Positions 5,964 through 64,000 of a stretch of 64,000 nt of DNA are shown here, piece by piece. How positions within the stretch are numbered: the first letter of the stretch is position 1; every line of letters begins with the position of its first letter. The position numbers were made by a program, and so were the translations under genes. The stretch is taken from positions 1 through 64,000 of IMG/VR virus record IMGVR_UViG_3300011977_000007; one strand, written 5' to 3'. The stretch is from a virus (taxonomy: Duplodnaviria; Caudoviricetes). Under the pieces are notes generated by a model. The model was not told where the DNA came from. It ran no database searches and worked only from the letters and a program-made list of their open reading frames with translations.

Positions 5964-8900
5964 CAGTGCCTTCACATAGGTCGTTAATCTATGCAGTTCT
6001 CTAATGAACTTCTCTAGTTTTTCTCTAGATGTTGAGACTATATCATCATCTTAGAAAGATGCTTTTCCACTTCCATTTAAAGGGTTCTCACCTACTCACT
6101 TGAGCCGTACTCCTATAGACGAATCTCACGTCCCTTCCGGGGATAGTCGTTGAACTAATATAAATTATATTAGTTGCTGATTATACATTATATAAGACCT
6201 TAGCACGTATATTTATTATACGCTTTTATTTCAGCATAGCCCATCTCTCTACTTGTTTCTGAATTTCTTCTCCTTATTAGGCTAGAGAGCTTTAGCATTT
6301 CCCAGCAATTCGAAAAAGTTTTCATGCTATATTGCTATAGTATGGGGCAAAATGTCTACCCAATCCTTTATATCTTGATATATTCTTTGGTTCAAATGAT
6401 TTAAATAATGTCATAAGCCCATATATAGTCATTTTATTATTATTGACTATATAATATTCTTCTGATTTATCAATATACTTGATTACTTCAGCACAATCAT
6501 TGATTAATCTTTGTGTAAAGAATACTGTTTGGATTTGATTATTACTTAATACCTTAAGAACTAACACACCATTTATAGTTTTAACCTCAGCATACTTATA
6601 AGTTTTATTAATTAAAGATATGAGTTTCTTTTCATTAAGTTTTCTATTATATAATAGAAACTCTAATAAATATGGGTCAAGCGAATAAGTTAATGCTATT
6701 TTATTAAGCTCATCTACATAATATCTATTCTTATAAAGAATTTGAGTAATTTCCTTTTTAGTATAAGGTCTCTTTTTAAGATTAAAAATCTTATTTTCTT
6801 TACAGAATGTAGACTGTACGTATTCAATATAATCTATATTATTAGCAAAGAACTTCTTTTGCTTACCAATCATAACGCCGAATAATGGTGGGTTTGCCAC
6901 ATATAATTTTCCTTGTTCGATTACGAATGGTAAATATCTTAAGAAGAATGTAAATAATAAGAATGTAATATGATCACCATCAGCATCGGCATCTGTTGCT
7001 ATTACAACTTTTTCTGGTCTAAATTTCTCTGGATCAAATTTCTTTGAATATCCCTTGTATCCAAATATATTTAATAATCCGGATACTTCAGCATTATCAA
7101 AGAATTTCTGTTTAGGCGTCGTTAACGCATTAGAGAATTTCAATTGTCTTCACATAGGTCGTTAATCTATGCAGTTCTCTAATGAACTTCTATGGTTTTT
7201 CTCCATACGTTGAGACTATATCATTATCCATTACTGGATATCTTATTACTTCCATTTAAAGGATTCTCACCTACCTACTTAGGCCGTACTCCAATTGACG
7301 ATTTTCACGTCCCGTATAGGGGATAGTCGTTGAACTATATTAAAAATATAGCTGCTGATTATACATTGTTAATACTACTTAGCACTCTATAATATAGAGC
7401 TTTTATTTCAGCTTATAGCATCTTAGAACTTGTTTCTGTCTTTCGACTCCTAAATTAGGCATCTAAGCTTTAGCAACTCCCAGCAATTCAATAAGATTTA
7501 GACACTATATTACTATAGTGAATAGGCAAATATCTACCTCGTATAGGCATTATCATTCTCTTCACACTAGTCGTTAATTAGTGCAGTTCTCTTATGAACT
7601 TCCTAGGTATTTCTCCTAGAGTTGAGACTATATCATCATCTTAGAAAGATGCGCTTCCACTTCGATTTAAGAGGTTCTCACTCACCCACTTGGGCCCTAC
7701 TCCAATTGACGATTTTCACGTCCCATATAGGGGATAGTCGTTGAACGTTCCTAATAAAATATTAGGCTTCGCTGCTGATTATACATTGTTAATAGTTTTT
7801 AGGGCATATTTATTTTATAAATACGCTTTTATTTCACCATGAACCATCTTAGAACTTGTTTCTGTCTTTCGACTCCCATAGGCATCTAAGCTTTAGCAAC
7901 TCCCAGCAATTCAAAAGCATACGCATGCTATATCTCTATAGCATGGGGCATAATGTTTACCTTGTGTTTGTTTATCTCTATTATTTTCAAGAGAAGAAGC
8001 AGCTGAATCACCCTCAACAATCCAAACTTCAATATTCTTCTTTCCGTTTGGCTTTTTATATTTAGCTGGTAATCCACCCGGTAATACAGATGTAGTATAT
8101 TTATCTGAAAGCTTGATTTTACTATCATCAACTTTAGATCTAATCTCACATACTTCCTTTAAATATTTACATACTTTATGTAAATCATTAGGATTAGACT
8201 GAGCCCATGCATCTAAAGCTTTAAGGGTCTGATCACAAGCAAATGGCTTCATATCTTCTTTAGAGAAATCTTCTTTACTTTGCGTTATCTTCACACTAGT
8301 CGTTAATTAGTGCAGTTCTCTTATGAACTTCTCTAGGTGTTACCTAGAAGACGAGACTATATCATTATACTTTATTCAAGTATTCTTCCACTTTGATTTA
8401 AGAGGTTCTCACTCACCTACTTAGGCCCTACTCCTATAGACGAATTTCACGTCCCTTCCGGGGATAGTCGTTGAACTTTCTATAATATTATAAATTCGTT
8501 TTCCTTTCTACTACTTTAGCTACTAGTTTAGGATTCGTATTATGTTTTATAAATTCTTCTGGCGGTATATATGGTACCTTATTTAGTAATGGTACTAATT
8601 CATAATTATGATAGTATTCTTGAAAATGATTAAATACATTAGCTGCAACTATTTCATCATCAAATGTACCTAAATATATGCTTGTATTATTCACTGATAT
8701 ACTTGCACTATATGTACTATTTGTTTCTTGATGAACCCCAAAATATTTTGATGATATATTATTTTGATAATTTTGTTTATATTCAATCTTTGCAAGATTG
8801 ATATTATCAATATAGTATAAGAATATACATGTTTTCGGAGAATATATTCTCATATTTTTGGGTATTGATAATTGTAGATAATCTTTATCTAGATTATATA

Positions 8901-59342: not shown

Positions 59343-59876
59343 TTGCATATGATTAGAATAGCTGTAACTGGCCATAGATATGATAAATTATATGGATACA
59401 ATTTAAAAGATCCTAGATATATGACATTATATATTATGATTTATAGTCGTATATTTAAAGCTATAAAAGAGGATGAAGAACATAAAGTGGAATGTATTAC
59501 TGGTATGGCTTTGGGAGCTGATACTATATTTGCTATAGCCGCAATAAACTTAAAGCTAAAAGGTCATAATATACATTTAGTAGCAGCAATACCATTTAAG
59601 GGACAAGAATTAAAATGGAATGAGGATTCTATAAAAATATATAATAATATATTAAAATATGCTGATGAAATAGTTTATGTATGTAATGGTGGATACGCAC
59701 CATATAAGATGCAAAAAAGAAATGAATATATGATAGATAGATTAACAGGAGTAAATGATATGCTACTTGCGATATATAATGGTTCTAATAAAGGTGGAAC
59801 TGCAAATTGCGTTAATTACGCTAAATCTTTAGGTATAAATATTGAATATATAAATCCTTTAGAGGTACTAGCTTAA
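59343..59876 (+). CDS. SLOG superfamily protein (YspA/DUF1273-like)
   Basis: IAVTGHR, GMALGAD, KRNEYMID, GGTANCV. Confidence 0.85.
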   Translation: MHMIRIAVTGHRYDKLYGYNLKDPRYMTLYIMIYSRIFKAIKEDEEHKVECITGMALGADTIFAIAAINLKLKGHNIHLVAAIPFKGQELKWNEDSIKIYNNILKYADEIVYVCNGGYAPYKMQKRNEYMIDRLTGVNDMLLAIYNGSNKGGTANCVNYAKSLGINIEYINPLEVLA

Positions 59877-59939
59877 TTGCTAGTACCTTTTATTATCTTT
59901 AACATTTTAATAAAATTATAGCAAGGAGGATATATTAAA

Positions 59940-60827
59940 ATGGCAACAGCAAAACAAATTATGGATAAAGCTATTAGTTATGTAGGTACTAAAGAGAAAC
60001 CTGCTAATAGTAATAATGTTATTTTTAACACGCATTTTTATGGTAGATCTGTAAGTGGTATCCAGTATAAATGGTGTGCTGCATTCATATGGGATATTTT
60101 TAGAATGTGCGGGGCTTCTAAATTATTTTATGATGGAAAAAAGAGTGCTTATTGCCCTTCTATTAAAAATTGGGCTGTTAAAAATAAGCTCACGGTAGAT
60201 AAATCTAAAGCTAGATATGGGGATATTGTAATTTTTGATTGGGATCATAATAAAATTCCTGATCATATAGGATTTATTGAGGACTATAAAAATGGAATCT
60301 ATTATACTATAGAGGGTAATACTTCTGTTGGCAATGATAGTAATGGTGGTTGTGTAATGCGTAGAACTAGACTTGCTAATTCTATTTGCTGCGTTATAAG
60401 ACCAAAGTATTCTAATACTAAATCTAAAGAAGTATCTGCAGATAAAGATACCGGTAATTCTAAATCATATATAGGTGATCAGAATTATTATCTTAATAAT
60501 TCTAGAGTTGGTACATGGCAGGCAGCTATGAATAAAGGTTTTGATACTAAGACTCTTACTGTAGATAATAAATTTGGTGCTAATTCACAGGCATTTGCAT
60601 CTACTCATATTCTTTGGTCTGGTCAAGCTCATAACTGTATTACTGCAATCAATTGGCTTAGAAAGACTCTGCATGACGTATATGGATATAAAGAGCTTCC
60701 AGTAACAGGATGCTGGGATGCTACATTAACTAAATATGTAAAGAAATTTCAGAAATCTGTTGGTGAAAAACAGGATGGAAAAGTTGGTCTTATTACAACA
60801 TATCATCTTCTTAAGGGTTCTAAGTAA
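59940..60827 (+). CDS. Endolysin: CHAP domain plus peptidoglycan-binding-like repeats
   Basis: WCAAF, DHIGF, TIEGNT; VKKFQKS...DGKVG; late motif at 59901. Confidence 0.88.
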   Translation: MATAKQIMDKAISYVGTKEKPANSNNVIFNTHFYGRSVSGIQYKWCAAFIWDIFRMCGASKLFYDGKKSAYCPSIKNWAVKNKLTVDKSKARYGDIVIFDWDHNKIPDHIGFIEDYKNGIYYTIEGNTSVGNDSNGGCVMRRTRLANSICCVIRPKYSNTKSKEVSADKDTGNSKSYIGDQNYYLNNSRVGTWQAAMNKGFDTKTLTVDNKFGANSQAFASTHILWSGQAHNCITAINWLRKTLHDVYGYKELPVTGCWDATLTKYVKKFQKSVGEKQDGKVGLITTYHLLKGSK

Positions 60828-60892: not shown

Positions 60893-61545
60893 ATGGGAAT
60901 TAATGCTCCAAAGCACGTAATACGAAAGCCTAAGCACATTACAAATCCGAAAGACATAGAATATATATTGTCCTTAACAGAGGATGAGGCTGCAGCTAAA
61001 AATACGATAATGGATTTATTTGCCGATTTTGGAGACGGCCCAAGATTTAATACTTATGATATTATAGAAATTCCTAAGGGATCTTATGGTAAAACTAAGA
61101 AGAATAAAAATCAATTTACAACTACAGTTGGATTATATGTATTTAATAAAGGCTGCATAGAAGATATGTCTGATGTACTGGGATATATTAATGAGCCTAT
61201 TACTGCTGATAAGTATGATGAAATAAATGAATTAGTATCATATGCTAAATTGGAAGATAAGATCACTGTACAGCAGTTGAAAGATTTTATAATACAATCT
61301 CAGATTTATATGTCTTGTACTTCAGCATTATCACCATCTCATACAATGGTTCTTCTTTTAATCTCAGATAAAATTGAGGCTAGAAAGAAACAATTATTAA
61401 AAGATAAGTATGGCGAGGCTATAAAGAAGAAAGATATTAAAGCAATGGATGCTCTTGATAAAGAACTTCTTGATTATGCAAAGGAATTATTAAAAGATGA
61501 TCCATCTGTTGATATGTTTAATTCTGGTGCTCGTTCATCATGGGG
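60893..61545 (+). CDS. rpoC: Split multisubunit RNA polymerase beta-prime C-terminal subunit, exon 1
   Basis: TTTVGLYVFN and MFNSGARSSW match beta-prime TTxGRxxFN and SGARGS. Confidence 0.82.
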
Positions 61546-62025
61546 TAAAATTACTCAGCATATATAGTAATATGTGTGTTTCAATGGGGTTAATTGCAGG
61601 TAATACCTAAAGGCCTTACGCCAAAACGGAATTTGAAAAAATAAACGGTATGGTACGAAAGTAGAAAAAACGTAAGGATGCAATAAGCTGAAATAAAATT
61701 CTATTATAAATTATAATAGATGCTAAGTTGTAATAACAAGGGTTGTTCATGCAGCGAAATACCTAAGTCTATATAGATATGGTAAACGTTCAACGACTAG
61801 CCGATGACGTCGGCGGCTTTGCCTTAATGTAAAACCACAAGTTAATGGTGGAAGAAAAATCCCAGCCCTATAAATATAGGGATGACAAATAGTCTCTGCT
61901 ACTACTTAATCGTAGTGACAACTTGAAATAATATAAGTTGTGTATATAGAGTTGCGTCTATATATAAAGATATAAAAATTATATAATATAAAAATTAAAT
62001 ATAGGTAGATAATTACAATTCTCAA

Positions 62026-62037
62026 AACACTTCATTA
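62026..62037 (+). promoter_or_regulatory. Late promoter motif inside the intron, upstream of tnpB
   Basis: AACActtcatTA. Confidence 0.55.
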
Positions 62038-62052
62038 AATCTGTAATGAAAG

Positions 62053-63315
62053 GTGGTGAGGATCGTGAGTAAAATAAATAACAATAAGCAATATTATAAA
62101 GGTCATAAATATAAAATATACCCAACTGAGGAACAAAAACAAAAGTTGGATAAATTTATAAATCTTTATAGGTACGTTTATAATTGGGCTCTTGCTAAAG
62201 AACAAGAGATATATGAATCTTATAAAAATGGTGAAAGTGAAAAATCATTTTATACTTTCTTTGATTTGTCAAAAATATTTGTACAATATAGAAATTCGCC
62301 TGAAAATAAATGGTTATTAGAATTACCCAACGGTACTGCATGTAATGCGATAAATGAATTGGTTACTGCATATACAAGGTTTTTTAATAATATTAGTGGG
62401 TATCCTAAATTTAAATCTAAGAAAAATTCTAAAAAATCATTTACAACTAGAAATGATAGATTTTATATAGATAAAAATACTGTAAAAATAGAAGGATTAG
62501 ATCTAAATGATAGAATTCAATTAGGGTTTGATTCTGAATATAATAAAGATTCTGTTCATCATAATACAGTTATATCTAAGGATACTATAGGTGATTATTA
62601 TGTGTCATTTTGTACTATTGAAGAAAAAATAGAAATTGATAATTCTGATGGTGGGGTAATAGGTATTGATTTGGGAGTTAGAAATACATTAACAACATCT
62701 GTACCTATTGAAGGTGAATATTTTCATCATCAACCATTTAATAAGATTAGTAAATTAAAACGTAATATATCTAAATTACAAGTTAAAGTATCTCACGATC
62801 AATTACGTAGACTTAATGAAGCAAAACGTACGAAAACCAAGTACGAAGACATACCTAAAAGTAAACGAGAAATTAAGAGAGAAAAAATAATAAATAAGAA
62901 ATACATTAAGATTCATAATATTAAAAATACATATTATGATACTATTATTAAACGTATTATGGATACTAAGCCTAAGGCTGTTGTAATGGAAACTTTTGAA
63001 TATAATAAAATCATACATTCACAAAAATATATGACTAAATATATGGTTGATACTTCATTTTATGATATTACTCAAAAAACAAAGTATCAATGTAATAAAA
63101 GAAATATTCCATTTATTCAGGCACCAGTGCAATATGCATCATCCCAAATATGTAGTAATTGTGGAAATAGGATTAAAATAGGTAATAAAAAGATTTATAG
63201 ATGCCCTATATGTGGTAATACGTTAGATAGAGATCTTAATGCTGCTTATAATCTCGAAGATTTTTATTATGACTATACTGGTACTAATAGATTAGTTGCT
63301 GTAAGTATAGCGTAA
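62053..63315 (+). CDS. tnpB: TnpB RNA-guided endonuclease (start may be GTG 62065)
   Basis: KIYPTEEQ HTH, PKFKSKK, GIDLG (D), VMET (E), CSNCG/CPICG zinc finger, DRDLNAAYNL (D). Confidence 0.93.
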   Translation: MVRIVSKINNNKQYYKGHKYKIYPTEEQKQKLDKFINLYRYVYNWALAKEQEIYESYKNGESEKSFYTFFDLSKIFVQYRNSPENKWLLELPNGTACNAINELVTAYTRFFNNISGYPKFKSKKNSKKSFTTRNDRFYIDKNTVKIEGLDLNDRIQLGFDSEYNKDSVHHNTVISKDTIGDYYVSFCTIEEKIEIDNSDGGVIGIDLGVRNTLTTSVPIEGEYFHHQPFNKISKLKRNISKLQVKVSHDQLRRLNEAKRTKTKYEDIPKSKREIKREKIINKKYIKIHNIKNTYYDTIIKRIMDTKPKAVVMETFEYNKIIHSQKYMTKYMVDTSFYDITQKTKYQCNKRNIPFIQAPVQYASSQICSNCGNRIKIGNKKIYRCPICGNTLDRDLNAAYNLEDFYYDYTGTNRLVAVSIA

Positions 63316-63548
63316 TTCGTTTACACATTATTTAGGTTAAATAATGAATTTTAATGTACCGAGTTTTACTGTTCTCGGGATGTTAAGATCATTGAGAATT
63401 GTAAGTATATATCATTTATAAGCCCAACCAGCTTAACGTGTGGTATTCACACGGTTGATATATGAATTATGATTTGTTGATATGATAAGTAAATCATAAT
63501 TATATATTTACCTTTATAGGTTTACATATTATATGATTTTAAATACAG
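63316..63548 (+). ncRNA. Putative omegaRNA scaffold / element right end
   Basis: 233-nt non-coding stretch after tnpB with hairpins CCGAG..CTCGG and AATTATGATTT..AAATCATAATT; position expected for omegaRNA. Confidence 0.55.
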
Positions 63549-64000
63549 TAACAATTTTAAAAACATGTATGTTTCTCGTGGTACTGTTAAATTGACCGAT
63601 GGATCATTTGATATGGTTACTTCATCATATATATCTGGCCTATCAAAAGAAGATCTTGTTAAAGCAAATGATGCTGCTGTTGGTGGTCCTTATAGCCGTG
63701 CTGTAAAAACTAAAGAGGGTGGATATAATGAAAAGAAAATTCTCTATGGATTACAGCATGTAAAAGTATTACCTAAAGGATCTGATTGTGGAACTAATAG
63801 AACTATAGATGTGACTCTTACTAAAAAGAATATTAAGAATTGGATGTATAGTTTTGTTAAACAAGGATCTAATTTAATAGAAATTACATCTGATACTAAA
63901 GATAAATTTATTGGAAAAACTGTTAAAATGAGATATTTCTCATTATGTGAATCTAAAAATGGAATATGCGAAAAATGTGCCGGAACCTTATTTAATCGTT
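63549..64000 (+). CDS. rpoC: RNA polymerase beta-prime C-terminal subunit, exon 2 (runs off window)
   Basis: Hand translation: bridge-helix-like SRAVKTKEGGYNEKK, SDCGT, Zn site RYFSLCESKNGICEKCAG. Confidence 0.85.

Follow-up and report, generated by a model that had tools for sequence, protein, structure and literature searches.

A transposase-less IStron in an RNA polymerase gene of a jumbo phage as a candidate RNA-guided homing intron

How does a group I intron that carries a tnpB gene come to reside, with no transposase found, in an essential gene of a virus? The question is raised by a 2003-nt insert, an IStron, in the beta-prime-like RNA polymerase gene of a gut phage represented by the 110,263-nt IMG/VR virus record IMGVR_UViG_3300011977_000007, of which the first 64 kb (64,000 nt, hereafter the window) were analysed. 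The record, whose completeness is about 35% (CheckV), is a fragment of a jumbo-phage genome. IStrons are known from published work, including their two groups, copies with TnpB only, copies in the phages c-st and D-1873 and splicing after a G, as are homing by TnpB with a guide RNA and its conflict with splicing (PMC4227781; 10.1101/2023.11.20.567912; PMC13565253). A preliminary description of the locus had proposed RNA-guided homing, or interference against relatives, and this reading is supported as an inference from sequence. We consider it probable that the element is an IStron without transposase that persists as a homing intron in a core gene of a jumbo phage.

The insert and its boundaries are real, and are placed in the host gene as follows:

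60893..61545, + strand: exon 1 of the beta-prime-like RNA polymerase gene (phrog_2962 positions 70-237; contiguous with exon 2 in loci L005-L008)
61546..63548, + strand: the whole IStron, 2003 nt (missing from L005-L008 at exactly the same point)
63549..64000, + strand: exon 2 of the beta-prime-like gene (phrog_2962 positions 257-389; alignment to L005)

The open reading frame (ORF) at 60893-61567 matches positions 70-237 of phrog_2962, an RNA polymerase family, and the frame from 63565 to the end of the window matches positions 257-389, consecutive to the match of exon 1. Exon 2 extends past the window end, up to 64067 in the record, and a second group I intron begins there. The uninterrupted homologue in L005 matches chain D of the AR9 non-virion RNA polymerase (nvRNAP), the beta-prime C-terminal subunit, and also bacterial beta-prime at about residues 700-835; the label “beta-prime” given in the preliminary description is therefore right. 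Exon 1 ends with ...SGARSSW plus the GG of a Gly codon, its last five bases being TGGGG, so that the conserved motif is split between FNSGARSSWG and NNFKNMY, just behind the SGAR stretch, as had been described. The insert contains a group I core, an ORF of 416-420 aa, 233 nt of non-coding sequence and an inverted-repeat (IR) stem.

Alleles without the insert, which the preliminary description had suggested looking for in related phages, exist. A scan of IMG/VR with a protein pattern of exon 1 gave four loci (L005-L008), and in all four the two exons are contiguous, with the junction exactly between 61545 and 63549. L005 shows 97% amino acid identity and 93-97% DNA identity to the window phage and belongs to a genome of 265,692 nt that is 98% complete, while L006-L008 are about 60% identical. 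The alignment with L005 stops at position 61548 of the window and restarts at 63550. The empty alleles have TGGGG, kept in 4/4, followed directly by the Asn-Asn-Phe-Lys-Asn-Met codons, and all five phages share the protein motif FNSGARS(S/N)WGNNFKNMY. Because the exons are contiguous in these alleles, deletion of the 2003 nt restores the frame, and removal of 61546-63548 at the DNA level recreates the empty-allele sequence in frame, which bears out the earlier claim on excision. Four nucleotides, GTAA, are common to both junctions, and the boundary can slide within this repeat with no change in the product; the requirement for a terminal G sets it at 61546-63548, where the 5' exon ends with G, the element begins with U and its last base is G. 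This boundary, also chosen in the preliminary description, has the published peculiarity of group B IStrons: in BcISt1, RT-PCR placed a G at the end of the 5' exon and a U at the start of the element, a pattern inferred for all group B IStrons and unusual among group I introns (PMC4227781). In the window, TGGGG closes the exon and a T at 61546 opens the element.

The element has the two components expected of an IStron, a group I ribozyme at its 5' end and, downstream on the same strand and inside the same unit, tnpB. The parts of the ribozyme are:

61585..61917, + strand: group I catalytic core (RF00028, c-st homology, covariation)
61585-90/61859-64, + strand: P3 (covariation)
61595-600/61747-53, + strand: P4 (consensus fold)
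61605-07/61741-43, + strand: P5 with extensions (consensus fold)
61754-63/61781-89, + strand: P6 (consensus fold)
61795-99/61890-94, + strand: P7 (consensus fold)
61866-71/61876-81, + strand: P8 (consensus fold)
about 61897-61917, + strand: P9 hairpin (core fold)
61541..61583, + strand: proposed P1, read from sequence, in which 61541-61546 would pair with GUUUCA at 61578-83

The core matches Rfam RF00028 with 29.7 bits (E 1e-5) in a scan of 531 nt only; neither a scan at the Rfam gathering threshold nor one at E<=10 over 2.5 kb detected an intron at the insert, and the intron of the c-st IStron reaches 55.7 bits in a comparable scan. By blastn, the core is 66.5% identical over 278 nt to positions 128254-128544 of Clostridium phage c-st, directly upstream of the annotated insertion sequence transposase genes OrfA and OrfB, that is, to the IStron CbISt3. 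An nhmmer profile built from the window element, c-st and L009, a homologous IStron of another phage, revealed group I cores upstream of tnpB in nine more IMG/VR loci. An alignment of nine sequences gave a consensus fold of 46 pairs, 29 of them with compensatory changes. Over 49 pairs (these 46 and three of P3), 90.7% of the cells are paired in the nine sequences, versus 29-42% when the partners are slid, and 30 pairs changed on both sides, versus 4-13 when slid, a level reached by none of 500 shuffles; the consensus structure was derived from the same alignment that served for its covariation test. The window element keeps 40 of the 46 consensus pairs, the exceptions lying in one peripheral hairpin that is formed differently, and P3 covaries among the window element, L009 and c-st. 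The group I core of the preliminary description thus stands on the homology to CbISt3, the pairs kept and covariation, which supports the helices P3 to P8, with RF00028 below its threshold.

In the proposed P1, the end of exon 1 and the first U of the intron would pair with an internal guide, UUUCA after a G. The P1 loop has a hairpin extension at about 61558-61577, a hairpin being predicted in both the window element and L009, and the same alignment columns of L009 place GGAG of the exon end opposite UUCC. The end of exon 1, ATGGGGT (61539-61546), is repeated inside the intron at 61584-61590. We rejected the idea that the internal copy (61584-90) is an older left end or a target duplication, as this copy makes up the 5' side of P3, which shows covariation in L009 and c-st. 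The exon 1 end could compete with the 5' P3 strand for the P3 partner at 61859-64. The complementarity of 61546-52 to 63553-59 was not adopted as P10, since it involves the wrong P1 strand for a canonical P10. In 76 records of Twort-like Staphylococcus phages (e.g. StAP1, Stau2), unannotated stretches match the 3' part of the ribozyme (61829-61991) with 72-73% identity over about 160 nt.

Two long-range complementarities link the region between ribozyme and tnpB to the tail of the element:

61975..61994, + strand: 5' arm of the IR stem (20 nt, 85% complementary to 63521-63540)
62006..62025, + strand: segment upstream of the tnpB ribosome-binding site (20 nt, 90% complementary to 63392-63411)

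The IR stem encloses tnpB and most of the tail, and its 3' arm ends eight bases before the 3' end of the element. L009 has at the same two positions a GC-rich helix of 9 bp, of unrelated sequence, which ends six bases before its 3' end; this would be covariation at the level of the helix, seen in two sequences only. The long-range helix of the window fits the “IR stem” known from the described IStrons (PMC4227781; 10.1101/2023.11.20.567912), a feature of group B. The second pair connects the region before the ribosome-binding site with the most conserved segment of the tail; both arms are conserved in L009, and the pair may act as a switch between translation, guide formation and splicing.

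The protein-coding part of the element is a single gene:

62065..63315, + strand: tnpB, 416 aa from a GTG start (PF07282, PF12323, NF040570; ORF open from 62053)

The ORF, of 416-420 aa depending on the start, has the Cas12f1-like TNB and OrfB HTH domains (Pfam PF07282 and PF12323) and scores 203.9 bits with the NCBIfam TnpB model NF040570, against a cut-off of 100; the NCBIfam models IS200_TnpB (168.8 bits) and IS607_TnpB (81.9 bits) both remain under their own cut-offs. Its best solved relative is the IS607 TnpB ISFba1 (PDB 8IAZ, E 7e-30), ISDra2 TnpB being found with E 2e-13. The D-E-D triad and the zinc finger of the preliminary description are intact: the RuvC residues D206, E313 and D394 and the cysteines C367, C370, C384 and C387 of the CxxC...CxxC pattern (420-aa numbering) are invariant in 21 homologues of 43-98% identity. 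A large protein collection holds 431 TnpB homologues at E <= 1e-20, and many of these are encoded by contigs of 150-310 kb. Of the 28 members in the 90% cluster, one is identical to the window protein; the full-length near-identical copies are all 416 aa long, and the start is therefore likely the GTG at 62065. All seven residues are kept in the 12 full-length near-identical variants that were read (12/12), which come from other assemblies. Closer homologues (98%, 71% and 69% identity) were found in the protein collection only, and protein-pattern scans of IMG/VR and metagenomes gave no TnpB closer than 43%. tnpB is the sole ORF of at least 60 aa in the insert with a family match, and no LAGLIDADG, GIY-YIG, HNH, His-Cys or PD-(D/E)xK endonuclease ORF is present among the family matches of the insert. 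Two TnpBs of this clade are encoded on a contig of 253,819 nt, which has the size of a jumbo phage (P0003, P0135, P0139): one is intact (69% identity) and the other is fragmented into pieces of 77 and 342 aa.

The non-coding end of the element and the sequence beyond it are the candidates for the guide RNA:

63316..63548, + strand: 233-nt tail, putative omega-RNA scaffold (fold z = -3.1; conserved part from about 63355)
63549..63568, + strand: putative guide, and target in intron-less alleles (first 16-20 nt or so of exon 2; from TnpB/omega-RNA architecture)

The tail, which had been described as structured, folds better than 200/200 shuffles (z = -3.1), holds the 3' IR arm at 63521-63540 and ends with ACAG. 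Its 5' half is conserved with L009 although the two proteins are only 43% identical, and comprises the hairpin CCGAG...CUCGG, a small hairpin and GAGAAUUGUA; the 3' part forms strong hairpins in both elements, with different sequences. An nhmmer search with these two tails detected no more homologues among 253 loci. RAGATH-18 (RF03064), known from published work as the motif of IS607 TnpB guide RNAs, gave no match at E<=10 in 63200-63600 or in 61300-63800, so that it is missing downstream of this tnpB, whereas positive controls downstream of tnpB in c-st, L010, L014, L018 and L021 scored 50-67 bits.

With respect to the target-adjacent motif (TAM), the preliminary description had given TGGG for the TnpB of an IS607 IStron, and this is in print: the TAM of CboIStron is TGGG, with the G at -3 as key discriminator against its own TCGG end (10.1101/2023.11.20.567912). 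For 23 other IS607 TnpBs, the TAM is AGGAG or GAGGG (PMC11061315). The flanks of the window element (TGGGG) and of L009 (CGGAG) are G-rich like these published TAMs, and the right ends ACAG and GCAG both have C at -3 versus G in the flank, as in CboIStron. TGGGG is thus a putative TAM and the start of exon 2 a putative guide.

The homologous TnpB-only IStron, L009 (2523-4445), lies in a complete, terminally repeated IMG/VR phage genome of 313,331 nt. Its flanks match positions 14-389 and 394-696 of one RNA polymerase beta family, and the insertion is within the Gly codon preceding Asp-Lys in PGDK...DR(H/Y)GGKG (the GDK...RHGNKG motif); uninterrupted beta homologues are found in three relatives (L250-L252), including a close relative of the window phage. 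Under the terminal-G choice, the element ends with GCAG and its 5' exon with CGGAG. The two elements share the ribozyme, the TnpB clade (43-45% identity), the 5' half of the tail, the positions of the IR stem, the lack of tnpA and, for L009 in a complete genome, the single copy. L009 differs in the gene and target (CGGAG flank), in its GC-rich IR stem and in having no U as first base under the terminal-G boundary.

No resolvase or serine recombinase (PF00239) and no Y1 transposase is present in the 110-kb record, itself only about 35% complete, which has one tnpB and a single copy of the IStron. The 98%-complete genome of L005 has no such transposase and no tnpB, two further relatives have no resolvase or Y1 transposase, and the complete L009 genome (G006) has exactly one tnpB and no transposase; PF00239 was not found in the record, G001, G002, G003 or G006. 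A tblastn search with c-st OrfA found nothing in the window element or L009, and serine transposases beside more distant TnpBs in other loci. Exact searches of IMG/VR with both element ends gave no other copy. The serine-recombinase tnpA of group B IStrons is thus missing, also as a remnant, although published group B IStrons can also be without tnpA. The preliminary description had named many dispersed copies with a cognate transposase as what would speak against its reading; neither these nor a tnpA was found in the record, the 98%-complete relative or the complete 313-kb L009 phage. All the checks by computation that it had suggested agreed with its reading.

The sequence around the insertion site is informative as well. 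Counted per 60 nt away from the junction, mismatches against L005 are 8, 6, 4, 1, 0 and 1 in exon 2 and 4, 0, 8, 2, 1 and 1 in exon 1, so that divergence peaks beside the insertion site and falls off over the next 180 nt or so. Homing from a diverged donor, with co-conversion of the flanks, would leave such a gradient.

From these features we infer that the transcript splices itself, that a guide RNA is processed, that TGGGG is the TAM and that cleavage leads to homing; the steps would connect as follows. In the pre-mRNA of the beta-prime-like gene, the insert would begin with the group I ribozyme. The G-rich exon end would pair with the internal guide in P1, and the IR stem would loop out tnpB and bring the core together with the 3' splice site, which follows G 63548. 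The halves ...SSWG and NNFKNMY... would then be rejoined by self-splicing, and the polymerase subunit could be made. From unspliced transcripts, TnpB would be translated, and the 3' tail with the first 16-20 nt of exon 2 would form the guide RNA. The TnpB complex would recognise TGGGG directly followed by exon 2 sequence, a combination restricted to the intron-less allele, as the resident copy has ACAG at this place. During co-infection, the nuclease would cut the intron-less allele of a relative, and repair from the IStron-bearing genome would copy the element together with flanking exon sequence, or the rival genome would be lost.

Several observations weigh against this scheme. The score of the core, 29.7 bits, is below the RF00028 gathering score of 50. 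The pairing of P1 is weak and rich in G-U (three G-U pairs), and is missing from the minimum-energy fold. The tail has no match to any Rfam family, even at E<=10, nor to a known omega-RNA family. Only two flanks underlie the TAM. In ISFba1, the residues contacting the TAM are K80, K83 and N121, which align with G, C and R here; as they are not conserved, the TAM is not transferable by homology. Among its first 16 positions, the putative guide has 3-4 mismatches to each of the four empty alleles (4/4), none of which is an obvious current target. For ISFba1 TnpB, a single mismatch at positions 1-13 is enough for a loss of activity (PMC11061315); if the window TnpB behaves like it, the four empty alleles would be resistant, as expected of alleles that stay empty. 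Finally, the neighbouring intron (64055-64429) or substitutions allowing escape of the target could also give the divergence gradient.

Among the other explanations, the one that survives best, which we nevertheless judge unlikely, is a stranded IStron that arrived once, by TnpA acting in trans or another rare event, and has been kept by the need for precise splicing, with TnpB and the tail as passengers. It would agree with the absence of tnpA wherever searched, with the lack of a perfect guide match in all four empty alleles (0/4) and with the broken TnpB of the same clade on another contig of 254 kb. Nevertheless, all 12 near-identical variants have a full-length TnpB with its catalytic residues, as do homologues as distant as 43% identity, found in another phage and in another gene, and the conservation of the non-coding tail between the window element and L009 is unexpected of a passenger. 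Somewhat less probable again is that the phage keeps TnpB chiefly as a weapon or regulator and not as a mobility factor of the intron, cutting the polymerase gene of rivals without spread of the intron, or binding it without cutting. The target does belong to a core gene, within a motif that is essential and conserved, and for phages the notion that homing endonucleases kill competitors is well established (PMC13565253). However, the same cut would trigger repair from the IStron genome, making exclusion and homing hard to separate, and the intact catalytic triad speaks against a purely binding role. That no splicing occurs, the insertion having split the subunit into two polypeptides that assemble, in phages whose polymerases already have split beta and beta-prime pieces, is very improbable: the frame of exon 1 stays open for 7 more codons before a stop, exon 2 has an ATG 5 codons in and split subunits are normal in these phages (AR9 nvRNAP), but this ATG is the conserved Met of NNFKNMY in all relatives and has no visible ribosome-binding site, the break would fall within an invariant motif, and the covarying ribozyme core and the IR stem conserved at the helix level would be purposeless.

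A transposase-less IStron that homes between phages thus remains the preferred reading, and it can be compared with three known types of systems. The closest are the group B IStrons, namely CbISt3 and CbISt4 of the Clostridium botulinum phages c-st and D-1873, CboIStron, BcISt1 and CsISt1, of which BcISt1 and CboIStron are reported to splice (PMC4227781; 10.1101/2023.11.20.567912). They have the same 5' group I ribozyme with a downstream tnpB on the same strand, the G-rich target, the exon G and element U, the long-range IR stem and the C at -3 versus G in the TAM, and TnpB-only and phage-borne copies of them have already been described. In contrast, the 3' terminus of group B is CGG (PMC13565253), as in the TCGG of c-st, whereas the window element ends with ACAG and L009 with GCAG; the window element has neither tnpA nor a remnant of it; its tail is devoid of the RAGATH-18 structure that c-st has; its TnpB is 26% identical to c-st OrfB; and it is present as a single copy at a polymerase motif of a jumbo phage, instead of being dispersed in a bacterial genome or in a plasmid-prophage. 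The element works like a group B IStron but departs from it in the CAG 3' end, the tail without RAGATH-18 and the divergent TnpB (26% to CbISt3). The second is ISFba1, whose G-rich TAMs AGGAG and GAGGG resemble the CGGAG and TGGGG flanks and whose scaffold of about 190 nt is close in length to the conserved tail of the window element (PMC11061315); it differs in that the window element has no RAGATH-18 match, and in the TAM-contact residues.

The third type comprises phage introns with protein endonucleases, such as T4 td with I-TevI and the AR9 nvRNAP intron with an HNH enzyme. Like them, the window element occupies a conserved motif of an essential gene, is polymorphic for presence and absence in close relatives, has a divergence of its flanks compatible with co-conversion and lies in a genome with many other group I introns. 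Unlike them, its nuclease is putatively RNA-guided, with a specificity that would come from the adjoining exon and not from a protein-DNA interface, and its tnpB is placed 3' of the core and not in a peripheral loop. In the literature searched, whose coverage is incomplete, we found no paper on IStrons in polymerase genes of jumbo phages.

These comparisons lead to a broader hypothesis, which we advance tentatively and hold to be less than an even chance: a distinct TnpB/guide-RNA lineage may now fill the place of the homing endonuclease in group I introns that lie in core genes of jumbo phages. It would be characterised by a CAG 3' end, a tail other than RAGATH-18, no transposase and one copy per genome, and would move only by RNA-guided homing between co-infecting phages, possibly forming a third group of IStrons, obligately viral and transposase-independent. 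Because the guide would be the adjoining exon, the nuclease would be re-aimed automatically at whichever gene is occupied, beta-prime here and beta in L009.

Other introns are present in the same genome and in other phages. A second group I intron lies at 64055-64429 (+) of the record (RF00028, 48 bits), in the same beta-prime-like gene about 520 nt past the IStron, and is missing in L005. Over about 10 kb (from 58423 of the window to 69139 of the record) that are 93-97% identical to L005, there are four intron-sized indels, 64068-64495 and 67579-68583 being extra in the window phage and 6679-7028 and 8737-9189 extra in L005, which indicates rapid gain and loss of introns. Further introns are found at 7603-7968 (-) of the window, with 57.3 bits and thus over the Rfam gathering score, and as group I matches at 6012-6367 (-) and at 93317-94641 (-) of the record. 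In phages of about 140 kb, a group I core with TnpB splits the portal gene between phrog_2739 positions 12-342 and 366-495 (L026:2436-4138, also L025, L030 and L041), with no serine transposase nearby. Directly upstream of the polymerase gene, the region 59343-60827 (+) of the window encodes a YpsA/SLOG-family protein and an endolysin with CHAP and peptidoglycan-binding domains.

Studies of IStrons and of homing driven by TnpB have dealt with bacterial genomes and plasmids, in which TnpB is regarded as an insurance against loss after excision by TnpA. The setting here is another one, a single element with no transposase found, in an invariant motif of an essential phage gene, which is the classic niche of protein homing endonucleases. 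As the general idea is in print and the phage is uncultivated, the gain is incremental. If the reading is true, RNA-guided nucleases would be true intron-homing enzymes in virus-virus competition, with a target set by the exon, and these phages would be a source of compact TnpB enzymes that use a G-rich TAM and a guide scaffold not described before.

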